In this document: positions 4,568-64,000 of the stretch, piece by piece
Numbering within the stretch: position 1 is the first letter of the stretch
Layout: each line of letters begins with the position of its first letter
NCBI GenBank assembly: GCA_031423895.1
Contig: JANPGK010000004.1
Span: 10,561 to 74,560, forward strand
DNA from: Hyphomicrobiales bacterium
GTDB taxonomy: Bacteria; Pseudomonadota; Alphaproteobacteria; Rhizobiales; JANPGK01
DNA length: 64,000 bases
Direction of reading: 5' to 3'
Made by a program: the position numbers and the translations under genes
Notes under the pieces: model-generated
The model's database searches: none
Told to the model about the DNA's origin: nothing
What the model saw: only the letters and a program-made list of their open reading frames with translations

Positions 4568-4577
4568 TGCACTTAAG

Positions 4578-4760
4578 GCTCCCCACTTGTGGGGGAGCTG
4601 GCGAGCGTAGCGAGACTAAGGGGGGTAAGAAACGTTTTGCGAAGCAAATGAAACGATCCAGTGAATCGTTTCAAGTTTCGAACGCCCGTAGCGATGCGAA
4701 GGGCAGGGAAAGCAAAACAAGAAAACCCCTCCCCCTAACCCCCTCCCACAAGGGGAGAAG
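4578..4760. repeat. Composite family-B repeat (B1 hairpin module, spacer, B2 module), copy 1, intergenic between flbD and flhA
   Basis: The B1 module is GCTCCCCACTTGTGGGGGAGCTG..CTAAGGGGGGTAAG. The B2 module is AAAACCCCTCCCCCTAACCCCCTCCCACAAGGGGAG. The same modules recur at 38326, 47214 and 49339. The spacer holds further hairpins (GAAACGAT-N7-ATCGTTTC). Confidence 0.8.
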
Positions 4761-10579: not shown

Positions 10580-10676
10580 CTGAAAAAATTAGCATACAAG
10601 GCAATCTCATTATTCATGATGGGATTGCCACCACGCCCGCGCTGCGCTATGGCTTGTCTCAAGAATAGGGCATCCC

Positions 10677-18836: not shown

Positions 18837-18857
18837 TGTGTGTCCTCAAGATGATTT

Positions 18858-18938
18858 AAGAGTTGAAATGCTCACGCTCCAACTCTTATTACGCTTCGCG
18901 GTTCGCTATTGCTCCTGCCAATTCATCAGATGAATTGG
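18858..18938. repeat. Family-D structured repeat, copy D1 (intergenic)
   Basis: Hairpin 1 is AAGAGTTG-N14-CAACTCTT. The core is ACGCTTCGCGGTTCGCTATTGCTCC. Hairpin 2 is CCAATTCAT-CAG-ATGAATTGG. Related units are at 42792, 57170 and 63969. Confidence 0.7.
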
Positions 18939-19016
18939 GCGCATTATCAATCAATATAATCGCTTGAAAACGCCTGCGCATTGATCCATATCATGCACAT
19001 ATGGAAATGAAGTGCA

Positions 19017-37833: not shown

Positions 37834-40800
37834 TCACGTAATTGTGTTGAGGGGGATGGATTCGATGTGCCCTGAATGAGTCCATACAATTCGCGCTTCA
37901 ATGGGGTGTGGCGTGGGCAGTGTGTGCAGCAATAATTGCGCATATAGCGCCAATTGTGCGGCATATTGGGGGGCTATCCCGCCCGTATAGGCTTCAGTTT
38001 TAAAGTCGATGATCACATGGGCTGTGGGCGTGATGGCCAGCAGATCAATACGGCCAGAAATCAATTGTTGAGTGCCATTAACGAGCAATTCTCCTAAAAT
38101 AGGTAGCTCGGCATATCGTTGCGGCGCATTCCACACATCGGCCAATGCGGGCAGGGCAGCGGTACGGCGCACTTCAGTGATGATACCCTGCGGCGCGCCT
38201 GCATGTGCGTGTGGGTCAGTTTTGGTGATATAGGCCACCAATTGCGCATCATCGGGCAGGTTGGGCACCAATTCGAGCAATTTGTGGATGATGGTACCAC
38301 GCAAGGCTGGGTTTTTGATAGACAGGCTCCCCACTTGTGGGGGAGCTGCTGAGTGTAACGAAGCTGAGGGGGGTATTCTTTCTTCATATTTAGATACGTT
38401 ACCCCCCTCAGTCACGCCCAACAAAAAATTGGGCGCGCCAGCTCCCCCACAAGTGGGGAGCATAAGTAAAGTAGCCGCTTCACGTACGCTTATGCTCGAT
38501 GGCAAAATAATGCTGTGCAAGGCCGCGGGGGGGGGCAGTTGCGCATCACACTCAGCGGCAGATATGGGCAATTGCGCGGTGGGCACAGTGAGGGGCGCAG
38601 TTGTGGTGCGCAAGCGTTTGAAGCTGCCGTGAGGCGTTTCGATCACCTCATGCGTGCCACCCCATGCCTGCACTGCGGCGTCTATTGCGGTGTACCAAGC
38701 GGTAGGCATTGCGATGTCGATGGTGTTTTTTTCCAGTGCATTGGCTTGCTTCTGCCCTGCAGCACCAAAAATAAACACTCTGTCGCGCGCGCGGGTGAGT
38801 GCCACATAGAGCAGCCGCATGGTTTCAGCATATTCTGCGGTGTTGTGCGCGTCTTTTGCCGTGGTGAAGGCGGGCGGCGCAGCGTGTTTATGCACGGTTA
38901 AAATTGGGGTGTTGCACTGCGTAAACAAAATTTTAGGCGCTTTTTGCTGGCGATAATCAAAGCAGCTGTCGGCCAATATCACCACGGGCGCTTCCAGCCC
39001 TTTGGCATTGTGCACGGTCAGAATGCGCACGGCGGTGCTGGCTTCGCTCATTTCGCGCTTTAAAATATGCGATGTAGTGCGGATCCACTGGGTGAAGCTG
39101 AACAGATCGGGCACATTTTGTTCCTCAAATTTTAGGATCAAGCCTAAAAATTCATCGAGAATTTCATGCACATCGGTGCCCATGCGTGTAGCAAACGCCA
39201 CACGCCCATTGGTGTTGCTGAGCATATGCATGAAAAATTCATAGGGTCGCGTGGTGAGCGCCAAGGCTTGCAAATGGTGCAATTGTGCTAATGCAGCGCC
39301 CCAATGTGGCTGCTCATGTGCGCGCGCCTCAAGCGCTTGCAACAACGTGCCGCTGCGCTGCGGCGCAATCGCAAGGATGTCGTCTTCATTGAGGCCCAAT
39401 ATTGGCGATTTCAGCGCGCAAGCCAGTTGCAAATCATCCTGCGGCAGCAGCACACAATCGGCCAACGCCAGCAGATCCTGCACGGCAATATTGTCGGTGA
39501 GGGTCAGCCGATCTGCACCGCCAACCGGGATGCCAGCATCGCGCAGTGCTTTCAGCAGCGTCTCAAATATGCCCTTACGCGCGCGCACCAATATTAAAAT
39601 ATCGCCTGCGGTGATGCGACGCGGGGCCCCGTTTTTGCCCTCCACCACATGAGGCGCGGTGAGTAGGTCTTGGATGGTATAAATAATTTGCTGCACCATT
39701 TTATGAATGGCATTGCGGGGCTGCTGCGGCGCCGTGGCGGCCTCCCATGTGAGTGTAATTTCGTGCTTGGTGTCGGGCAGGCACAGCGGCCACACATCCA
39801 CACAGCCAAAACTGCTGCGGCGCTGGGTTTCATGGATCACGGGTGTGGCATCGGTGGTGAGCTGCTGCGCACGCGGGCGCGGGGCAAACACACCATCCAC
39901 AAGCGCCAACACATCGGGAGTGGTGCGGAATGAAATTTGCAGCGGCTCTTCATGCCATTCCAGCTGCGCATCGGTAATTTTATGAGCAAATGTGGCCTTC
40001 ATATGGGCAAATCGCTCTGGCGCTGCGCCTTGAAAACGGTAAATTGATTGTTTCTCATCCCCCACCACAAACACAGTGCGGGTTTTAGCGCGGCCCGCAT
40101 CGCCCACAAAAAACTCACTCGAAAGTTGCCAGATGATGTCCCATTGCGCATGGCTGGTGTCTTGGGCTTCGTCCACAAGAATGTGATCGATCCCCCCATC
40201 GAGTTTGTAATGCACAAAGGCGGCATCGGCACGCAGCAATAAATTGCGGGTTTTGAGCACCAAATCGTCGAAATCGAGCATGCGTTGCGCGGTTTTGGCG
40301 GCTTGATAGTGTTTCATCACCTCAATGGCAACCGTAATGGCACTGAGGCTGGCCTCAAAGGCGCGGAAATTATACACATGGGTGCGCAGTTCCAACAATT
40401 GGGCGATGCAGGTCTCATAAAACAGGGCATGTTCAGGGAATTGTGTCACAATGTCCTTGGTGGGGGATCGTTTTTTCAGCAGCTCGCCTGATTGCGTTTC
40501 CACCAATTTCATCAAACCCGCAAACCGCGTGTTGAACGACGATGCGGCCAGGCTTTCCCGCAGATATGTGGCAATTTTGGTGTCGTGATCCTTGCCCGTT
40601 TCAAAAATTTGGCATAGCCAGTGCACCATTTTTGGATTTGTCAGCGGAATATCGCGCAGCTGTTTTGCCAGCGTTTCAAGGGTTTGCGTGGGCGGCACAT
40701 CTAGCGTGGCCCGTAGCGCCAATTCAAGCGATTGCGTGGTGTGGTTTAACATGAAGCTGAGTAGCGCATCGCGTTTAGAAAGCAGCCCTTGCAGGTGCAT

Positions 40801-41376
40801 TTCTAGCTGCGCACTGCCCAAAATACTGTGCAAACGCTTTAAATCTGCATGAAATGGCGAGCCAATTTGGCCCGCGCTGCGATAGAATTTTTGGAAAGCG
40901 CCCGCCCATAATGTTTGTATTTGGGGTTCATCTAGCAGTGTGAAACTTGTGGGCACAGGGGCTTCAAACGGAAATTGCTGCAGCACACGCTCGCAAAATG
41001 CATGAAGCGTTTGAATTTTCAAACCGCCAGGCGTTTCTAGCGCTGTGGCAAATAATCTGCGGGCATGGCGCAATTGGCGCGAGCTGGCAGGCGCATTGGT
41101 TAGGGTTTCAATGGCAATTTTCAACGCGGCATCATCTAAATTGACCCAAATTTTGAGGGTATCAAACACGCGTGCGGCCATTTCAGCTGCAGCGGCGCGG
41201 GTGAAGGTGAGGCACAGAATTTTTTCAGGAGGTGTGCCTGCCAATAGTAAGCGGATCACCCGCTGCGTGAGCACGTGCGTTTTGCCCGAGCCTGCATTGG
41301 CGGCCACCCACGCGCTGGCGTTTGTATGCGTGATCCGCGCGATTTTTTGGGCGTGGCTGCTCAAGGGGTTATTCAT
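37834..41376 (-). CDS. addA: Double-strand break repair helicase-nuclease AddA
   Basis: UvrD-type helicase motifs (AANAGSGKTHVLTQR, VDEAQDTS, ..) and a C-terminal PD-(D/E)XK nuclease region. I placed the start at ATG 41376, overlapping the addB stop by 8 nt. The longer ORF-track start at 41532 would run 160 nt into addB. Confidence 0.9.
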   Translation of the reverse strand: MNNPLSSHAQKIARITHTNASAWVAANAGSGKTHVLTQRVIRLLLAGTPPEKILCLTFTRAAAAEMAARVFDTLKIWVNLDDAALKIAIETLTNAPASSRQLRHARRLFATALETPGGLKIQTLHAFCERVLQQFPFEAPVPTSFTLLDEPQIQTLWAGAFQKFYRSAGQIGSPFHADLKRLHSILGSAQLEMHLQGLLSKRDALLSFMLNHTTQSLELALRATLDVPPTQTLETLAKQLRDIPLTNPKMVHWLCQIFETGKDHDTKIATYLRESLAASSFNTRFAGLMKLVETQSGELLKKRSPTKDIVTQFPEHALFYETCIAQLLELRTHVYNFRAFEASLSAITVAIEVMKHYQAAKTAQRMLDFDDLVLKTRNLLLRADAAFVHYKLDGGIDHILVDEAQDTSHAQWDIIWQLSSEFFVGDAGRAKTRTVFVVGDEKQSIYRFQGAAPERFAHMKATFAHKITDAQLEWHEEPLQISFRTTPDVLALVDGVFAPRPRAQQLTTDATPVIHETQRRSSFGCVDVWPLCLPDTKHEITLTWEAATAPQQPRNAIHKMVQQIIYTIQDLLTAPHVVEGKNGAPRRITAGDILILVRARKGIFETLLKALRDAGIPVGGADRLTLTDNIAVQDLLALADCVLLPQDDLQLACALKSPILGLNEDDILAIAPQRSGTLLQALEARAHEQPHWGAALAQLHHLQALALTTRPYEFFMHMLSNTNGRVAFATRMGTDVHEILDEFLGLILKFEEQNVPDLFSFTQWIRTTSHILKREMSEASTAVRILTVHNAKGLEAPVVILADSCFDYRQQKAPKILFTQCNTPILTVHKHAAPPAFTTAKDAHNTAEYAETMRLLYVALTRARDRVFIFGAAGQKQANALEKNTIDIAMPTAWYTAIDAAVQAWGGTHEVIETPHGSFKRLRTTTAPLTVPTAQLPISAAECDAQLPPPAALHSIILPSSISVREAATLLMLPTCGGAGAPNFLLGVTEGGNVSKYEERIPPSASLHSAAPPQVGSLSIKNPALRGTIIHKLLELVPNLPDDAQLVAYITKTDPHAHAGAPQGIITEVRRTAALPALADVWNAPQRYAELPILGELLVNGTQQLISGRIDLLAITPTAHVIIDFKTEAYTGGIAPQYAAQLALYAQLLLHTLPTPHPIEARIVWTHSGHIESIPLNTIT
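38326..38461. repeat. Inverted pair of family-B1 modules, located inside the addA coding sequence
   Basis: GCTCCCCACTTGTGGGGGAGCTG..CTGAGGGGGGTATTC, a 19-nt spacer, then the reverse-complement module GTTACCCCCCTCAG..GCTCCCCCACAAGTGGGGAGC. The AddA frame stays open across it. Confidence 0.8.
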
Positions 41377-44300
41377 CTTCGCCGCCTTCATCTTCCTCGG
41401 CCAGCACACCCCATTCGGCAATGCGCGCCAAATGGTCGTAATCGGTGTAGCTCGCGATTTTCCCGCCATATGGTTTGACATAAAACGGGTGGGTTGGGGT
41501 GCACATGGCCTGCAGCGCCACATGCACGCCATCGAGAATATTGGTGCGCATTTGCGCTAAGGCCTCGCCTTTGCCCATGGGCTGCGATGCTTTTAGTTGC
41601 GTGAAATTATCGGTGAATTTGATGTATTCCAGTGCATGTATGGAAGTGAGTGTGCCGTTTTTCTCAAAATTTTGGGCATGTGCCATTTCCCCCAGTAGCA
41701 CCAATTGTGGATAAAGCCCCGCATTCACTAGTTTTGTGGCGGGCACAACCCCTGTTTTAAAATCGCTTATCACAATGCCATCGCTGCGCTGTTCCACGCG
41801 GTCGGCCCGGCCATGAATGGTGAATTTCTCCCCCATAATATCCCACTGCATGCGATACGACACTTCGCAGCGTACTTTATGCGTATGCTGGCGGCGAGCC
41901 TGTTCAAACGCAATGATGCCATCGACCACGCCATGTAATTGCAGCCGCCATAAAATCCGTTCTTTATCTGGCAAAACGCTGGTGTGGGTTTCAATCTCAG
42001 TCAATACGCTGTTGTGCAGCGCCTGTGTGTCGTCGCTCCACTGTGTGGCCGCCAGCTCAACAATTGTGTGGATGAGGGCCCCGCGAATGCGCGCATCGGG
42101 CAATTGGCCAATGGGTTCAAGAGGCTTCAAGCCCAACACATATTCGGCATAAATGGCATAAGGGTTGTGTAGCAGGGTTTCAATTTTGGTGACAGAAAGC
42201 GTTTTAGGCCGCAATGCCACAGCAGGGCAAGGGGTTGGTGCGGCAATGGGCGCAAAATTATGCGTGGCGTTGTGCGCGCGCACCTGTGCCAGCACTGCAT
42301 TGCCACGGCTGCGCCACGGTTCAAAGCTATGTGTGCCCATCACCGCCGAAATGCGCTGCAAAAACCGCGATGGCAGTGTTGGTGCGCCGCCCTCGCGTAC
42401 CGATCGCGTGAGAATAATGTGGTTTTGCCCCATAAATTGTGCAAAATCATGCGCTGAAAGCGCAATGCGCCGCTCTGGCATGGGCAAACCAATGGCACTG
42501 CGGAGTGCTCGCCCCAGCCACACATCGGGCATATTGGCTGGCGGCCACATACCTTCATTGAGCCCACCCAAAATCACCGTGTCGAATGTGTGCAAACGCG
42601 CTTCCAACGCGCCCATCACCACAATGCGGCTGTTGTGCAGGGGGGGCGGTAATGTGGGCGCCATGTTCAAAATTTGGGTGAGAATGGCGGGGTATGCCGC
42701 GAATGGGATTAAAAATTGCGTGGCTTGGCCAGTATGCGCATCGTGAATGGCTTGCAACACTGTGGTGTGAGCGGTGTCGGCATCATAGTTTAAAACTTGG
42801 CATGCTGTCGCGCCAAGTTGAAGACACGCTTCGCGGTTCGCTATCGCTCCTTCCAAATTTTGAGAAAATTTGGGGATATCTTCATCCTGTACAACGGGCA
42901 CGAGCGCGGCAAAAATTTGGGCAAATTGCTCATTGTAGGTGGCAAAAGGTTGGTGCGGATTATCGGCAGTTTGCAAGGCCAAAAATGGTGCAATTGCCGC
43001 CAAATAGCCTTCTAAAACCGCCTGCGCGTTGTGCCAATCCTCTAAGGTGAGTGATTTTTGCGCGTGGGTCAGCTGATGCGGCTTTGCACCTTCGCAGTGA
43101 GCATTTTGCCATGTTTCAAAATTATGAGCAAGCGCCGCATTCCAATCGCCAGCAGGGGCAATGCCGCGAAATAGCGCGCATTCCAGCGCGGTAACAGCTG
43201 TTTTTAGATCCAAAACGCCTTCAACCTGCACCATAGGGTGACGCAAAAATGCCAGTGCGGCTGCGGGAGATTGTGGCGCGGCTAGCGCATCAAGCAACAG
43301 GCGGGCGGCACGCCCTGGCATGGTGTGCAACAATGGCAACCCGCCAGAATCGGGCACATCAACTCCAAATGCCTGCAAATGCGCACACACGCGCCGCGCT
43401 AGGGTGCGGTTTGGCGTGATCAGTGCCGCAGTTTCATGAGGTGTGGCGGCTGTTAGGCGTAATTGCAGCGCAATGCTCAGCGCTTCCTCTTCCTCATGTG
43501 CAGCCTCTAAAAGCGTGACATGCGCGGTGGCGTTCATCAATTCTGCATCGCATTGCTGCACGCGCCATGAATGCCATTCATCGGTGGTGCTGGCGGGCTG
43601 CAAGGCATAAGACACAATGGTTTCGAGCAGCGGTGGCGGGGTTATACGCCCTAAAATCGGCACATCGGCAGGGTGGGCAATATGCAGAGTAGTGAGCAGC
43701 CGCTTGAGGTGAATTTGCGGGTGAGTTTCGGCCTGCCCAGCAGCGCCAATGGCCGCCCAAGCGGTTACGCTCAGCTGCGTGTCAAGCCCCGGAATGATGA
43801 GCGTGCCATATGGGCTGCGGGCAATCGCGGCCAATAGCTCCGCAGTGGCAGGCGTTGAGCCAGTGGAGCCCGCCGCGATGACGCGGCCAAATTGTCCCGC
43901 CTCAATGCGCTGCGCCATGGCATGGATGGCTTCATCCCAGGCCACAATTGGGTCTTGCAGGCTATGGTCCTGCAAAAATTGCGGCCATTGCTGTAGTACT
44001 ATGTTCAAAAAACCGAGGTTGAGCTCGTGGCTGCCCAAAAATTCGGTGGGAATCATGTCTGCAATTGCGTGCGCACTCACATGCTCAAGCGTAAGCTGGT
44101 CAAGCGTATTGGCCAAATCTTGCGCCAGCGCAACACATTCAGCATGGGAAATCTGTATAAAAATTGGGTCGTTTGGGTTGTGCCATTTTGGTGTGTGGCC
44201 TGCATTCACCGCCGCATATACCGCCTGTTTCCATTGCAAAATTAAGCGTGCCAGCACCCATACGCGCTGGGTGGGTGTAACCGTCGTTTCTGATATATCT

Positions 44301-46064: not shown

Positions 46065-46478
46065 TTACGATATGGTTTTGTCCTGAGGCGGGCGATTGGA
46101 ATGCCAGTAGGCTGTGAGCGCCGCAATAAGCGGAATGAATACTTTTGCGGCTTTGAGAGTGGTAATTTTAGCAGCGAGTTTCTCTAAAACTTCCTGAGCG
46201 CGGGTAATTTTGAGAGGAATATCATCAAGTTTTTTAATAGCGTTACCTCCAGCGACCTTAACGCCATTAAGCGAGTTCCCTTTTATGTCTCCAGTGATTT
46301 GTTTATCAAATGTTTTTTCTAGAGTCTGTTCATATATTTTCTGAAGAGCAGGAATTTTTTCAGCGTATTGTTTTACTACAGTTGTTGCATCAGATAGTGC
46401 TTTTTGTGAATATCCATAAAAACTTGGGAAAACGCCACCGTTTTTGATATATTTAATTAAAGTATCTTCGATCTTCAT
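46065..46478 (-). CDS. Hypothetical protein, low-GC orphan with a C-terminal hydrophobic anchor
   Basis: Start ATG 46478 has GGAG 7 nt upstream; the ORF-track start at 46490 is a TTG inside that RBS. I recognise no family. The C-terminus is ..LKAAKVFIPLIAALTAYW followed by a polar tail. Confidence 0.45.
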   Translation of the reverse strand: MKIEDTLIKYIKNGGVFPSFYGYSQKALSDATTVVKQYAEKIPALQKIYEQTLEKTFDKQITGDIKGNSLNGVKVAGGNAIKKLDDIPLKITRAQEVLEKLAAKITTLKAAKVFIPLIAALTAYWHSNRPPQDKTIS

Positions 46479-46521
46479 TATAATCTCCAATATTACAAAT
46501 ATTGGATCTTACATAGACTAT

Positions 46522-47298
46522 TCATGTAATTTTGTCAAATCTCAAATAACAACTCCTTCGCCCCTCGCGCCGTGCTTTGGCTTCATAGCGGGTTTGCACC
46601 CAGCCCTCATAAGGTGTGAGGAAATCAGCGGCGGTGTGCGCTGGCCATGTGAACGCGGGGTGTTCGCGGATGTGCTGCAAGGTCCACGCCGCATAGCTAT
46701 CAATATCGGTGGCACAGCGAAATTGGCCGCCCAGCACCAAAATACGGGCGAATTCATTCAGCGCATCGATGGAGACAAAGCGCCGCTTCCAATGGCGTTT
46801 TTTGTGCCATGGGTCGGGGTAAAACAGGTGCACATGCGAGAATTGCGCATCTGGCAGGGTACGCAGCAAAAAATGTGCATCGTCATTATAAAAGCGGATG
46901 TTGGGCAGGTGTTCATCCAAGCAATCGCGCACAGCGGCGGCATATCCATTCAAAAACGGCTCCACGCCGATGAAGCCCACAGTGGGGTTATTGCGGGCGC
47001 GGTTAAGCAAGTGCTCGCCCGAACCAAAGCCAATTTCCAGCTCATAGCGTTCGAATGGTTGGCCAAATAGCTGTGATAGATCGAGCATTTGCCCATGCGT
47101 AAACGTAATATCTACAGCGCCTTGCTGGGCGATGGCGTCTTTTTTGCCAAGCGATAGCGCCTTGCCTTTGCAGCGGCCATAAAACTTGCGGATGGTTTCG
47201 GGTGGGGGTGAAGATTCTCCCCTCCCCTTGCGGGAGGGGGTAGGGGGAGGGGTTTTCTCATCAGCATTCGCTGAGTATATGTTTGGAATATTATCCAT
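46522..47298 (-). CDS. trmB: tRNA (guanine-N7)-methyltransferase TrmB with a repeat-encoded N-terminal extension
   Basis: Core motifs: EIGFGSGEHL, FYPDPWHKKRHWKRRF. The first ~38 aa (..EKTPPPTPSRKGRGESSPPP..) are encoded by the family-B2 repeat module. Confidence 0.85.
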   Translation of the reverse strand: MDNIPNIYSANADEKTPPPTPSRKGRGESSPPPETIRKFYGRCKGKALSLGKKDAIAQQGAVDITFTHGQMLDLSQLFGQPFERYELEIGFGSGEHLLNRARNNPTVGFIGVEPFLNGYAAAVRDCLDEHLPNIRFYNDDAHFLLRTLPDAQFSHVHLFYPDPWHKKRHWKRRFVSIDALNEFARILVLGGQFRCATDIDSYAAWTLQHIREHPAFTWPAHTAADFLTPYEGWVQTRYEAKARREGRRSCYLRFDKIT

Positions 47299-47354
47299 TA
47301 AGAATACCCCCCTCAGTCACGCTATGCGTGACAGCTCCCCCGCAGGTGGGGAGC
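47214..47354. repeat. Composite family-B repeat (B2, spacer, B1 in reverse orientation), copy 3, straddling the trmB start codon
   Basis: B2 spans 47214..47257 (TCTCCCCTCCCCTTGCGGGAGGGGGTAGGGGGAGGGGTTTT). B1 spans 47300..47354 (AAGAATACCCCCCTCAG..GCTCCCCCGCAGGTGGGGAGC). The trmB ATG (47298) lies in the spacer between them. Confidence 0.8.
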
Positions 47355-47361
47355 CGTTTTC

Positions 47362-48237
47362 TTACCCCAACATCGCCTTCAACGCAGTGCGCAAATCATC
47401 CGCCAGCTCTGGCCTGTCCAGCCCATAGGCCACATTGCCAGTGAGGAAGCCGATTTTGGAGCCGCAGTCGTAGGTTTTTCCGTCGAATTCCAACCCATAG
47501 AAGGATTGCTGCGCCAATAAGCTGATCATCGCATCTGTCAGCTGAATTTCGCCACCTGCGCCGCGCTGCCCTTTGGCCAATAGGTCAAAAATTTGTGGCT
47601 GTAAAATATAGCGCCCCGTGATGGTGTAATTCGATGGCGCAGTGCCTTTGGCGGGCTTTTCCACCATGGCATTGATCTCAAATCCGTTGGCTTTTTTGGC
47701 GCCCGCCCCCACCACACCATATTGGTGGAGTTGATCTGTTGGGGTGGTTTCCACCGCCAGCACATTGCCGCCCGTGGCGTTATAGACATCCATCATTTGT
47801 GCAAGGCAGGATTTTTTGGCTTTCACCAACACATCAGGCAGCAGCACGGCGAAGGGCTCGTTGCCCACAATGTCGCGCGCGCACCACACCGCATGCCCCA
47901 AACCAAGCGGCGCTTGCTGGCGGGTGAAGCTGGCTTGACCTGCGGGGATCATGTCGGCCAGAAGCTGCTCTAATTCACGCGTTTTGCCACGAGTTTTGAG
48001 GGTGTCTTCCAGCTCATATTGATGGTCGAAATGGTCTTCAATCACATGCTTAGAGCGGCCAGTCACAAAAATAAAATGCTCGATGCCAGCTTCACGCGCT
48101 TCATCCACCACCCATTGCACCAGGGGACGATCGACCACCGTGAGCATTTCTTTGGGCATAGATTTGGTGGCGGGCAAAAAGCGAGTGCCAAGACCTGCAA
48201 CGGGAAAAATAGCTTTACGTACTTTAGGAGATGACAT
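47362..48237 (-). CDS. galU: UTP--glucose-1-phosphate uridylyltransferase
   Basis: N-terminus KAIFPVAGLGTRFLPATKSMPKEML and family-wide similarity. Confidence 0.9.
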   Translation of the reverse strand: MSSPKVRKAIFPVAGLGTRFLPATKSMPKEMLTVVDRPLVQWVVDEAREAGIEHFIFVTGRSKHVIEDHFDHQYELEDTLKTRGKTRELEQLLADMIPAGQASFTRQQAPLGLGHAVWCARDIVGNEPFAVLLPDVLVKAKKSCLAQMMDVYNATGGNVLAVETTPTDQLHQYGVVGAGAKKANGFEINAMVEKPAKGTAPSNYTITGRYILQPQIFDLLAKGQRGAGGEIQLTDAMISLLAQQSFYGLEFDGKTYDCGSKIGFLTGNVAYGLDRPELADDLRTALKAMLG

Positions 48238-48317: not shown

Positions 48318-49310
48318 ATGACAATTTTGGTAACAGGCGGGGCTGGTTATATTGGCAGCCACATGGCGCACGCCTTGGTGGATGCCGGCGAAGATGTTGT
48401 AGTGTTGGATAATCTCACCACGGGGTTTCGCAACTGCATTCCGCGCACGGCCAAATTCATTAAGGGCAATGTGGGCGATGCCAAGCTGCTGGAGAAATTA
48501 TTCGCCGCGCATAATATTGAGGCGATTGTGCACTTTGCGGCCAGCATTGTGGTGCCAGAATCGGTGGCCGATCCGCTGAAATATTATGGCAATAACACCG
48601 CAAACACCCGCACGTTGATTGAAGCCGCCGTGAACGCAGGTGTGAAACACATCATTTTCTCATCCACCGCCGCTGTATATGGCAATGCTGAAGTTCAGCC
48701 TGTCACCGAGCATAGCCCCACGCTACCAGAATCGCCCTATGGGCGCTCTAAGTTAATGTCGGAATGGATGCTGGCCGATGCGGCCGCCGCGCATGGGTTT
48801 ACCTACACCGTGCTGCGCTATTTCAATGTGGCGGGGGCTGACCCTCGCGGCCGAGTGGGGCAATCGACACCCGAAGCCACGCATTTGATTAAAGTGGCGT
48901 GTCAAGCCGCGCTGGGGCAACGCCCAAATTTAAGCGTATTTGGCAGTGATTATCCCACATCAGATGGCACATGTGTGCGCGATTATATTCATGTGAGTGA
49001 TTTGATTGCGGCGCATGTGGCGGCGCTCAAACGCCTGCGCACTGGCGCGCCATCGGTAACAGTGAATTGCGGTTATGGGCGCGGCTTTAGCGTGATGGAG
49101 GTGATTAAAACCGTGAAAAAGGTGACAAAGATAGACTTCCCAGTGGTGATGAGCCCACGCCGCGCCGGCGACCCCGCCAGTATTGTGGCCTCAGCTACCA
49201 CCGCGCGTGAAGTTTTGGGATGGGTGCCGCAGTTTGATGATTTGAAAACCATCGTGAAGCATGCCTATAAATGGGAAGCTAAACTGGCTAAGCGGAGGGC
49301 GCAGGGATGA
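48318..49310 (+). CDS. galE: UDP-glucose 4-epimerase
   Basis: Start ATG 48318 (GAGG upstream) gives MTILVTGGAGYIGSH. The YxxxK motif (YGRSK) is present. The stop overlaps the next ORF as ATGA. Confidence 0.9.
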   Translation: MTILVTGGAGYIGSHMAHALVDAGEDVVVLDNLTTGFRNCIPRTAKFIKGNVGDAKLLEKLFAAHNIEAIVHFAASIVVPESVADPLKYYGNNTANTRTLIEAAVNAGVKHIIFSSTAAVYGNAEVQPVTEHSPTLPESPYGRSKLMSEWMLADAAAAHGFTYTVLRYFNVAGADPRGRVGQSTPEATHLIKVACQAALGQRPNLSVFGSDYPTSDGTCVRDYIHVSDLIAAHVAALKRLRTGAPSVTVNCGYGRGFSVMEVIKTVKKVTKIDFPVVMSPRRAGDPASIVASATTAREVLGWVPQFDDLKTIVKHAYKWEAKLAKRRAQG

Positions 49311-50698
49311 TTTTAAGAAATATGTGCCTTTACTTTACCTCTCCCCTTGTGGGAGAGGGTGGCGCGAAGCGCCGGGTGAGGGGTTTTCTTTCTAGCGCCG
49401 TGAAGAATACCCCCCTCAGTCTCGCAAGCGCTCGACAGCTCCCCCACAAGTGGGGAGCATTAAGTATATGCTTATTTATTCTATGTATTTTTATTTTCCC
49501 CGCCCACGCGCAACAAAGTGGCGACCCGCAATTTCAGGCTTTTGTTCAGCAAAAAATCTGGCCAAAAGCCCAAGCCGCAGGCATTGATCAAGCCACTTTC
49601 GCGGCGGCGTTTGAGGATGTGACCTCGCCCGACCGCTCTATTTTGGGCACGGCCAAAAAGCAGCCCGAATTTGCCAGCACAGTGGGCAATTATGTGGGCA
49701 AACGCGTTTCGCCTGCGCGCATTCAAAATGGGGCAAAAAAGCTGGAAGATGGCCGCATTCACAACGCGTTGAGCCAAATCGGCAAAAAATATAATGTGGA
49801 TCCATTTGTTGTGCTCTCCATTTGGGGTATTGAATCCTCCTATGGCGCGGCGCTCAACCCCGAAACGCTGAAAAACGTGTTTCGCTCGATGGCCACTTTG
49901 GCGTATGCAGACAGTGCGCGACGCGAGTTTGGCTTTGAACAAACCATTGCAGCGCTGAAAATTGTGAAGCGTGGCTATGCTGAAGTGCATGAAATGCGCG
50001 GCTCGTGGGCGGGCGCAATGGGGCACACGCAATTCATACCCACAAGTTATTTGGTGTATGCGCAAGATTTTGACGGCGATGGACACCGCGATATTTGGAA
50101 CAATATTGGCGATGCATTGGCCTCAACCGCCGCACATTTGGCCACATCCGAAGGCAATGCCCCTACATGGATTGACGAAGAGCCATGGGGCGTGGAAGTG
50201 GTGGTGCCGCAGGGCTTTAATTATGCCAATGCGTATGAAAATGGTGGATTTGAGGAAAAATCGATCACAGCATGGCAACAGCTTGGCATTCGTGCGGCTA
50301 GCGGCGGCCTGCCAAACTCACGCGGCGAGGCTACGCTCTATGTGCCATCGGGCGTAAATGGCCCTGCATTTTTGCTATACCCGAATTTTAAGGTGATTAA
50401 GCGCTATAATTTCTCAAATGCCTATGCGTTGGCAGTGGGGTTGCTCGCCGACAGGTTGCGCGGTGAAAATGTGCCAGTACGATCATGGCCAAGCGATGAC
50501 GACCAACTCACGCGCATTGCCGATGTGAAACTGCTGCAAAGCCGCCTCACACAATTGGGCCATTATAATGGCAAAATTGATGGGTTCGTGGGGCCCAAGG
50601 TCTATGCCGCCACCCATGCGTTTCAAGCGCGTGCGGGCATTTCCCCTGCTGATGGGCTGCCTACGCAAGAAGTCTTGGAAGCGTTGCGCGATAAATAG
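49307..50698 (+). CDS. Lytic murein transglycosylase (MltB/SLT_2-like) with a C-terminal peptidoglycan-binding domain; start codon uncertain
   Basis: Catalytic region ..LSIWGIESSYG..., WAGAMGHTQFIPTSY. The C-terminal PG_binding_1-like repeat is LQSRLTQLGHYNGKIDGFVGPKVYAATHAFQ. The signal peptide (..LSICLFILCIFIFPAHA/QQ) follows the repeat-encoded residues. An in-frame GTG at 49400 is an alternative start. Confidence 0.8.
   Translation: MILRNMCLYFTSPLVGEGGAKRRVRGFLSSAVKNTPLSLASARQLPHKWGALSICLFILCIFIFPAHAQQSGDPQFQAFVQQKIWPKAQAAGIDQATFAAAFEDVTSPDRSILGTAKKQPEFASTVGNYVGKRVSPARIQNGAKKLEDGRIHNALSQIGKKYNVDPFVVLSIWGIESSYGAALNPETLKNVFRSMATLAYADSARREFGFEQTIAALKIVKRGYAEVHEMRGSWAGAMGHTQFIPTSYLVYAQDFDGDGHRDIWNNIGDALASTAAHLATSEGNAPTWIDEEPWGVEVVVPQGFNYANAYENGGFEEKSITAWQQLGIRAASGGLPNSRGEATLYVPSGVNGPAFLLYPNFKVIKRYNFSNAYALAVGLLADRLRGENVPVRSWPSDDDQLTRIADVKLLQSRLTQLGHYNGKIDGFVGPKVYAATHAFQARAGISPADGLPTQEVLEALRDK
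49339..49458. repeat. Composite family-B repeat (B2 plus B1, reverse orientation), copy 4, inside the 5' end of the transglycosylase ORF
   Basis: CTCTCCCCTTGTGGGAGAGGGTGGCGCGAAGCGCCGGGTGAGGGGTTTTC, a 13-nt spacer, then GAAGAATACCCCCCTCAG..GCTCCCCCACAAGTGGGGAGC. Confidence 0.8.
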
Positions 50699-56640: not shown

Positions 56641-57474
56641 TCACACCCGATAATACGCCTGCCATGCCGTTTCAGCTTCTGTAATCGATTCTGGCATGCC
56701 CACATGCATCCACAGCCCCTCAAGCCGCACGCCGTGCAGGCGCTCTTGCGCAATCAGCGTGTTGAAAATGCGGTTGAGCGAAAATGCTGACCCCACGTCA
56801 TATTCATGAAACAGACTGGCCTTTAATATCGCCACGCCTGTATACACAAACGGCGCCACATCCACGCCCGCACGGCGGGTAATTGTGCCATCTTGCGCCA
56901 GATGAAAGTCGCCGCGCCCTTCATAGCCTGTGGTGTGGGGCGTTGCGGCCAATAGCAGTACCGCATCCATGCGGGCGGGGTCGAAATAGTGCCGCAAGCG
57001 CTGTAGGCCGCTACTGGCGCCATCAATCCACACTGTGTCGGAATTGCATAGATAAAACACATCGCGGTTGATGAGTGGCAGGGCCTTGGCTATGCCGCCG
57101 CCTGAATCGAGAATGTGGGTACGCTCGTCGGAGATAACAATTTCTATCTGGGGGATTTCCTCCCCCTTAGCGCCGCTATTATGTGCGGCGCCCCCCTCCA
57201 CGCTGCGCGCTGCGCTAGCGCTTGTGCCAAAATCACTGAGTGATTTTGGGTCTTGCTGACCTTGTAGCAAATGCGCTTCAAGCATGTCGGCCAAATAATG
57301 CACATTCACCACGGCGCGGTGCACACCTGCAGCGGCCAGCCTGTCGAGTGTGTGGTCAATCATCGCTCTGCCCATGACAGGCACCATGGGTTTGGGCATA
57401 TGCAAGGTGATGGGGCGCATGCGGGTGCCAAGCCCTGCGGCCAAAATCATTGCGGTGTCGATTTCAGCCACCAT
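56641..57474 (-). CDS. murU: Sugar-phosphate nucleotidyltransferase, MurU-like (N-acetylmuramate alpha-1-phosphate uridylyltransferase family)
   Basis: N-terminus AMILAAGLGTRMRPITLHMPKPMVPV. It sits beside the TsaE/AmgK-like fusion, as in other alphaproteobacteria. It carries a ~30-35 aa low-complexity insert encoded by repeat D3. Confidence 0.75.
   Translation of the reverse strand: MVAEIDTAMILAAGLGTRMRPITLHMPKPMVPVMGRAMIDHTLDRLAAAGVHRAVVNVHYLADMLEAHLLQGQQDPKSLSDFGTSASAARSVEGGAAHNSGAKGEEIPQIEIVISDERTHILDSGGGIAKALPLINRDVFYLCNSDTVWIDGASSGLQRLRHYFDPARMDAVLLLAATPHTTGYEGRGDFHLAQDGTITRRAGVDVAPFVYTGVAILKASLFHEYDVGSAFSLNRIFNTLIAQERLHGVRLEGLWMHVGMPESITEAETAWQAYYRV
57170..57249. repeat. Family-D structured repeat, copy D3 (diverged), inside the murU-like coding sequence
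   Basis: Hairpin 1 is GCGCCGC-N8-GCGGCGC. The core ACGCTGCGCGCTGCGCTAGCGCTTG matches the D2 core at 19 of 25 positions with no gaps. Hairpin 2 is CCAAAATCACT-G-AGTGATTTTGG. Confidence 0.6.
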
Positions 57475-63883: not shown

Positions 63884-63968
63884 CGCGTATCCTCCATACA
63901 GAATTCTGCTTGGTGGGCCGCCTTGAGAAGGGGTGGCGCATATCGCAGGGTCATATACTTTTGGGATT

Positions 63969-64000
63969 AAAAACTTGGAATCGCTGCGCGCCAAGTTTTA
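63969..64000. repeat. Family-D repeat, copy D4 (hairpin 1 only; truncated by the window end)
   Basis: AAAAACTTGG-AATCGCTGCGCG-CCAAGTTTT is nearly identical to hairpin 1 of D2 (AAAACTTGG-CATGCTGTCGCG-CCAAGTT). Confidence 0.5.

Follow-up and report, generated by a model that had tools for sequence, protein, structure and literature searches.

A head-to-head pair of hairpin repeats straddles the predicted start of trmB and apparently lengthens its N-terminus in a Hyphomicrobiales bacterium

[quoted passage not shown] REPs are short, GC-rich, imperfect palindromes present in many copies, mostly as head-to-head dimers separated by a spacer; they are found just downstream of stop codons where neighbouring genes run in the same direction, sometimes within genes (notably those involved in repair), and often at predicted N-termini (PMC3733652). 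RPEs are short palindromic repeats found in frame in the genes of conserved proteins, including their N-termini, where they do no harm because the regions they occupy are permissive, and N-termini decorated in this way are expressed in vivo (PMC3733652, PMC2229807, PMC10969869). Bacterial MITEs with open frames become fused to genes in frame and can give a protein its terminal residues as well as a stop codon (PMC5896051, PMC2229807); in Coxiella enhC, 33 C-terminal residues come from QMITE2, with the stop codon immediately downstream of the insertion (PMC5896051). The CcrM-associated intergenic repeats (CIR) of Caulobacter, alphaproteobacterial repeats of ~110 bp consisting of two arms and a linker, are conserved across genera, carry a GANTC site in the loop and stops in all six frames, and do not lie inside genes (PMC2229807). 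Here we examine a pair of GC-rich hairpin repeat units, termed B1 and B2, at the 5' end of trmB, the gene for tRNA (guanine46-N7)-methyltransferase, in 64,000 nucleotides of a Hyphomicrobiales bacterium (assembly GCA_031423895.1, contig JANPGK010000004.1, positions 10,561 to 74,560; hereafter the 64-kb window, whose own numbering is used throughout).

The two units straddle the trmB start, as had been proposed in a first-pass annotation of this DNA, and both are true repeats, with five copies of B1 and three of B2 in the window (Table 1). Their limits needed some adjustment: B2 does lie inside the open reading frame (ORF), at 47215-47259 rather than 47214-47257, and B1 does fill the 63-nt galU-trmB gap, at 47300-47356; its first base is 1 nt away from the trmB start codon, and 7 nt separate its last hairpin from the stop codon of galU (47362-47364). 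The trmB product scores 112.9 bits against TIGR00091, above the family cut-off of 112.65, and matches PDB chains of TrmB at E = 7e-25; PF02390 is among the domains of its 5801 homologues (E <= 1e-10). In an alignment of 18 sequences (the window protein and 17 orthologues), conserved TrmB sequence begins at F39-Y40-G41-R42, the same FYGR block at which it had originally been placed, and all 62 columns invariant across the 18 sequences are kept in the window protein, including F39, G41, R42 and D63 of the N-terminal block and E88-H96; the EIGFGxGE motif that binds S-adenosylmethionine is conserved. Retention of this invariant FxGR block in an open frame means that translation has to begin upstream of codon 39. 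The nearest upstream stop in the trmB frame is the TGA at 47319-47317, within B1, and between it and Met71 (47088) the codon listing contains a single ATG, GTG or TTG, namely ATG 47298 in the spacer between the two modules; both the uniqueness of this ATG and the lack of a standard start between the repeat and the conserved block had thus been correctly recognized. The in-frame near-cognate codons are ATT 47289, ATA 47280 and ATC 47193, and an NCBI protein (P0001, 258 residues, 100% identical) is annotated from the same ATG 47298.

Comparison with orthologues indicates that the N-terminal extension of the window TrmB is not ancestral. Residues preceding the FFGR motif were counted in the 119 best orthologue clusters of TrmB and range from 7 to 36 with a median of 13, 95 of the 119 having 12-14; the window protein, with 38, is the longest of all. 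At least 22 residues precede the motif in just four of the 119 clusters, and the called start of P0076, one of the two long outliers, overlaps the gene that precedes it and may be an over-call. An extension shared with orthologues, set beforehand as the observation that would count against an element-derived N-terminus, was therefore not encountered. A start lying 12-14 residues before the motif would be expected near 47220-47226, a position now inside B2. AlphaFold2, run with the TrmB alignment, gives a predicted local distance difference test (pLDDT) score below 50 for residues 1-43 and mostly 85-97 in the catalytic domain, while the E. coli TrmB structure in the PDB is alignable only from residue 64. 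Based on these two observations, the extra residues would fall in a disordered tail that should accommodate an insertion with little damage.

Each unit is a compact, structured module. B1 consists of an AAGAATA flank, a CCCCCCTCAG head, a small hairpin (GTCACGC-TAT-GCGTGAC, 47316-47332), an A, and a second hairpin (GCTCCCC-CGCAGGT-GGGGAGC, 47334-47354). B2 is without the small hairpin; its reverse strand has the architecture of B1 (CCCCTC..., CTCCC-loop-GGGAG), and by this layout B2 is a diverged, inverted copy of a B1-type unit. What was first described as a composite element is thus a head-to-head dimer, with C-run and G-run heads facing each other across the linker. B2 at trmB differs from the copy at 4720-4757 by a 5-nt duplication (CCCCT) and a 1-nt deletion, and it may be, although this is speculation, that these +5 and -1 changes helped to set the frame. 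B2 has no stop codon in any minus-strand frame, so that an open frame across it is weak evidence for translation. The G-rich flank GGGTGGGGGTGAAGA that follows B2 in the trmB reading direction may, with some uncertainty, be left over from another unit head, given its resemblance, without statistical support, to CGGGTGAGGGG (49374-49384) at the end of another B2 copy.

Table 1. Coordinates of the trmB locus and of the repeat copies in the 64-kb window.
Feature	Position	Strand	Basis and remarks
B1 unit	47300..47356	plus	Repeat comparison and fold; fills the galU-trmB gap; carries the in-frame stop TGA 47317-47319
Linker, 40 nt	47260..47299		Between the two heads; carries the ATG and codons 1-13 (MDNIPNIYSANAD)
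B2 unit, 45 nt	47215..47259	plus	Three-copy comparison; minus-strand translation EKTPPPTPSRKGRGE, residues E14-E28
G-rich flank GGGTGGGGGTGAAGA, minus-strand SSPPP	47200..47214		Direct reading
Shine-Dalgarno-like GAGGGGGG, the B1 head on the minus strand	47307..47314	minus	8-nt spacing from its last G to the A of the ATG
trmB ORF, 258 residues, tRNA (guanine46-N7)-methyltransferase	46522..47298	minus	ORF list, TIGR00091, homologues; residues 1-38 are the extra N-terminal tail
ATG, sole canonical in-frame start before the conserved TrmB block	47296..47298	minus	Codon-by-codon listing
galU	47362..48237	minus	TIGR01099, 341.6 bits; upstream of trmB on the same strand
B1 copies, n=5	4577-4627; 38324-38380; 38397-38463; 47300-47356; 49403-49460	minus; minus; plus; plus; plus	BLAST and direct reading
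B2 copies, n=3	47215-47259; 4720-4757; 49340-49392	plus; minus; plus	BLAST and direct reading

Copies of the units were located in the window by BLAST and direct reading, with shuffled sequence as control. The B1 hairpin pattern CAGCTCCCC-N5-GTGGGGAGC has six matches against 0.03 expected, the B1 head 12-mer TACCCCCCTCAG has seven against 1.9 expected, and a B2 36-mer has none in the shuffles. All four loci that carry units in the window carry them as head-to-head dimers. The B2 copy at 49340-49392 contains an additional GGCGCGAAGCGCC hairpin, and the canonical copy at 4720-4757 measures ~41 nt.

One of these dimers lies well inside a second conserved gene. A B1/B1 head-to-head dimer at 38324-38463 is inserted in frame in addA (ORF 37834..41532, minus strand; TIGR02784, 947.7 bits), adding ~45 residues (LMLPTCGGAGAPNFLLGVTEGGNVSKYEERIPPSASLHSAAPP) in a linker region just before the conserved RGxxxHxLL motif, and is missing from all 12 aligned AddA orthologues, from which it follows that this genome tolerates such insertions. 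The 16-nt linker of the addA dimer has a GC content of 19% and shares its absence from the orthologues; at least one dimer here was therefore inserted together with a non-native linker. The longest addA ORF (1232 codons) may be over-extended at its 5' end (41377-41532), the database protein (P0122) having 1180 residues.

The family extends far beyond this genome. While the exact B1 22-mer has no match in 185,579 species-representative genomes, it was found in three metagenome contigs, in one of which the B1 unit apparently lies inside an ORF. A looser pattern (CCCCTCAGTC, 8-30 nt, CAGCTCCCCC, 4-8 nt, GGGGAGC) yields at least 119 loci in other genomes; among the matches listed, most belong to Caulobacter, Phenylobacterium, Hyphomonadaceae, Vitreimonas and unnamed Alphaproteobacteria, further loci to Dehalococcoidia, Oscillospiraceae and other Clostridia, Bifidobacterium, Bacteroidaceae and Binatia, and none to Rickettsia. 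The small hairpin of B1 covaries, 46 of 64 distinct versions having at least five uninterrupted pairs compared with 2 of 64 when shuffled. Of the 118 units among the matches listed, 65 have a GAGGGG/GGGGGG run, marking the 3' end of a B2-type partner, no more than 80 nt upstream, at distances of 2-79 nt. Inspection of 45 upstream sequences revealed mostly a B2-type partner, in the same order as in the window and with the layout CCTCCCCC-loop-GGGGGAGG-TGGC-hairpin-GCC-GGAGGGGG, and the B2-linker-B1 arrangement recurs in Caulobacterales, other Alphaproteobacteria, Dehalococcoidia and Clostridia. Caulobacter linkers form subfamilies (~26 nt and ~47 nt) with conservation from copy to copy and from species to species, hence the pair there behaves as one unit. 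Rfam gives nothing at gathering score in the window (only chance-level matches at E up to 10) and nothing on the dimers in 13 other loci, and a full-text literature search for the repeat sequence returned matches to eukaryotic primers only, with no description of the B1 unit found.

At trmB, the G-run of the B1 head lies where a ribosome-binding site would be expected, a point missing from the first-pass annotation. The 22 nt upstream of each of 42 long ORFs in the window were ranked by duplex energy with the anti-Shine-Dalgarno sequence, and those upstream of ATG 47298 give -11.8 kcal/mol, the strongest value of the set (median -3.45). Taken together, these sequence features make it quite probable that translation starts at ATG 47298 and that B2 is translated as EKTPPPTPSRKGRGE, in which case the tryptic peptide MDNIPNIYSANADEK is predicted. 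The predicted mRNA fold joins the G-run (47307-47312) to the C-run of B2 (47247-47252) and places the AUG in a structured loop; the 186-nt fold has a z-score of -5.8, with a mean pairing probability of ~0.7 for the Shine-Dalgarno sequence. This predicted sequestration stems from the complementarity of the B1 and B2 heads and, if the model holds, probably lowers trmB translation relative to galU. A hammerhead ribozyme in the linker was also considered, as CUGAUGAG is present on the minus strand, and was rejected on the grounds that Rfam gives no hammerhead match.

The reading towards which we lean, somewhat better than evenly, is that the pair was inserted with its linker and that the ATG itself is borne by the element. 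The head-to-head, REP-like two-hairpin pair (47215-47356) would then fill all the space between the galU stop and the conserved trmB body, having inserted at the old start near 47220-47226 or no more than a few codons from it, and a fortuitous in-frame ATG of the linker would have replaced that start. Transcription of galU-trmB would pass through the pair; ribosomes would initiate at ATG 47298, with the G-run of the B1 head (GAGGGGGG) as Shine-Dalgarno sequence, and would then read the remaining linker and the whole of B2 in frame, adding ~25 residues (38 compared with the usual 13), an insertion tolerated because the extension falls in the disordered N-terminal tail. An element origin of the linker is favored by its AT-richness (its GC content of 32.5%, in a stretch that folds into two mini-hairpins, is equalled by 2 of 41 ORFs over their first 40 nt and by 1.2% of 40-nt windows within genes), by the position of the expected ancestral start inside B2, by the non-native linker of the addA dimer, and by the conservation of Caulobacter linkers within subfamilies.

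Several observations weigh against this reading. BLAST finds no second copy of the 40-nt trmB linker in the 64-kb window; the four window linkers (10, 16, 40 and 84 nt) are mutually unrelated in length and sequence, as insertions of adjacent single units would also give; and B2 as delimited is 45 nt long, a multiple of three. The closest non-identical relatives of the window TrmB are distant (46% identity for the best-scoring, P0002, and no more than about 53-54% for others, Hyphomicrobiales proteins included), so that with the nearest relative in the protein database at ~53% there is no pre-insertion trmB allele to compare, and removal of the pair leaves no canonical start, so that the ancestral start cannot be pinpointed. 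The other genomes show no excess of ORF starts behind the B1 head: 10 ORFs of 80 or more residues start 3-13 nt after it, against 16.8 expected (for ATG, 7 against 6.0). B1 as a portable ribosome-binding site was consequently rejected for the family as a whole, and the Shine-Dalgarno role at trmB would be a local accident rather than a property of the element. Of the original proposal that the element donated both the start codon and the N-terminus, we retain the N-terminal extension, to which the repeat pair adds a ribosome-binding site; that the start codon too stems from the element is likely but unproven, given a linker unique in the window.

The first three of these observations are equally what would be expected if a native start were flanked by two separate insertions, that is, if ATG 47298 and codons 2-13 were original, B1 had inserted upstream in place of the old ribosome-binding site, and B2 had inserted in frame after codon 13, leaving the element to contribute 15 residues and the Shine-Dalgarno sequence, not the start codon. 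REP-type units are, moreover, known to accumulate as head-to-head dimers (PMC3733652). Such a history would, however, leave 23 residues before the motif, a length reached by just four of the 119 clusters, and would need a native coding sequence far more AT-rich than the 5' ends of ORFs in the window; in addition, the addA linker is clearly not native coding sequence, and the canonical B2 of ~41 nt is no multiple of three. We consider this account unlikely, albeit one that keeps real weight.

It is improbable that translation starts downstream of the repeat, at ATC 47193 or Met71, with the pair forming a structured 5' untranslated region and the 258-residue ORF being over-extended. REPs at predicted N-termini are often in reality extragenic (PMC3733652), the open frame of B2 in three minus-strand frames proves nothing by itself, and ATC 47193 sits three codons before FY; yet there is no ATG, GTG or TTG in this interval, whereas ATG 47298 has an excellent Shine-Dalgarno match. 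ATC 47193 was rejected as a non-canonical start: no Shine-Dalgarno sequence is suitably spaced from it, the closest GGAG-type run lying more than 20 nt upstream, and it leaves three residues before the motif compared with an orthologue minimum of seven. A start at Met71 would lose the invariant block containing F39, G41, R42 and D63.

That the insertion disabled trmB, leaving a decaying or silent gene with a coincidental upstream ATG, appears more improbable still. TrmB can be lost in several bacteria, among them E. coli and B. subtilis, which grow without it in the laboratory, so that "essential-type", as the enzyme had been labeled, is too strong, and a transient loss of the start would be survivable. 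Initiation could fail if the Shine-Dalgarno sequence is paired as predicted, and the TIGR00091 score barely exceeds its cut-off. Against this, the ORF is intact across 258 codons, none of the 62 invariant columns has been lost, and the catalytic domain is modeled with confidence. An assembly artefact at the repeat is scarcely credible: short-read contigs do break in such repeats, and a Logan contig of SRR20217181 ends inside B2, but up to that point, from galU across B1, the linker and half of B2, this independent assembly agrees base for base, meaning that the junction is no artefact peculiar to one assembly, and the reading frame runs cleanly into the conserved gene.

The genes galU and trmB are probably co-transcribed, as just one promoter-like site was found on the minus strand, at 48324-48295 upstream of galU, and the sense-strand hairpins lack a U-run: no intrinsic terminator (hairpin plus U-run) is present on the sense (minus) strand of the gap, and the terminator-like sites that B1 and B2 do contain are confined to the plus strand, antisense to both genes. 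In a Hyphomicrobiales relative the gene order is metK-trmB-rimP-nusA, while in the window trmB follows galU in a rearranged neighborhood. Directly after the trmB stop lies a low-GC island (46065-46550; 29-36% GC compared with 52% for the window) that may be foreign DNA and holds a 141-residue ORF (46065..46490, minus strand) with no NCBIfam match. With galU replacing the gene order of the relative upstream and the island downstream, trmB looks remodelled on both flanks, which fits loss of the original 5' region and is no proof of it.

The dimer at 49340-49460 gives a second window gene a 5' end embedded in repeats. The ORF of an MltB_2 lytic transglycosylase (49307..50698, plus strand) begins at an ATG with a good Shine-Dalgarno match, overlapping the stop of galE as ATGA, runs through the whole B2-linker-B1 dimer, and continues into a signal-peptide-like LSICLFILCIFIFPAHA|QQ; its remaining in-frame starts are GTGs within the dimer (e.g. 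49400), with no canonical start right before the signal peptide. The fourth dimer, at 4576-4760, occupies the gap between the flbD stop (4567) and the flhA ATG (4779), and its 84-nt linker contains an extra palindrome, GAAACGATTCACTGGATCGTTTC, and one GANTC site; the FlbD encoded here matches the Caulobacter-type equivalog. A different repeat family, with a palindrome TTTAAAACTTGG...CCAAGTT followed by ACGCTTCGCGGTTCGCTAT..., is present in three to four copies (positions 18855-18939, 42789-42874, 57200-57248, 63967-63997 and 10638-10662).

It is conceivable, although we think it a long shot, that the B2-linker-B1 dimer is an undescribed cross-phylum repeat family with distinct left and right ends that has been co-opted at trmB as a translation-control cassette. 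If so, the Shine-Dalgarno sequence of the B1 head and the anti-sequence of the B2 head would form a long hairpin around the start codon, and the level of trmB expression would hinge on whether the paired repeats melt, with temperature or ribosomes that terminate at galU as possible triggers. The B1 unit itself, conserved in sequence across distant phyla and without an Rfam match, is the more unusual aspect and may merit separate investigation.

Compared with described systems, the pair shares with CIR an alphaproteobacterial setting and two arms joined by a linker, but the dimers at 47215-47356, 49340-49460 and 38324-38463 are open in most frames, and identity with CIR was rejected given that GANTC is absent from all three. 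As in MITEs fused to ORFs (ERIC/RU-1, the 107-bp Correia elements and Coxiella QMITEs), a non-autonomous repeat is here apparently read in frame. The two units are imperfect inverted repeats of each other; no target-site duplication could be delimited from the 3-5 copies, and no parent insertion sequence was identified, although no search aimed at one was made. What differs is that here it is the 5' end of the gene (Shine-Dalgarno sequence, start codon and N-terminus) that would lie in the element.

There is likeness to REP, REPIN (REP doublets forming hairpins) and BIME (bacterial interspersed mosaic elements): the window units are repeated, GC-rich, imperfect palindromes with predicted hairpins, all four loci are head-to-head dimers, and one lies in addA. 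In contrast to these, the window units have two hairpins and a conserved CCCCTCAG head, and the window linkers are not conserved. The terminal GTAG/CGTC tag of two REP superfamilies (PMC3733652) is not recognizable, there being no CGTC or GACG in the four window dimers and GTAG only incidentally, inside 47215-47356 and 4576-4760. No RAYT transposase, usually encoded by a single gene copy, was seen in the 64-kb window, although no search for RAYT (PF01797) was made. With RPE-1 and its relatives the locus shares in-frame insertion in conserved genes, here addA and trmB; the host differs, as the sequence family appears to, the modules here are GC-rich, two-hairpin and spread across phyla, and the trmB pair sits across the start codon itself.

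By analogy, then, the element appears to work like REP, REPIN or RPE. As read here, the trmB locus offers a clean example of a selfish hairpin repeat that would have rebuilt the 5' end of a conserved housekeeping gene while leaving the enzyme core untouched, with the ribosome-binding site, the start codon and ~28 codons of trmB now inside the repeat pair. It also carries a warning for annotation, namely that in genomes with such repeats N-termini bearing low-complexity peptides of the PPP/GRG type can be genuine rather than start-codon errors.

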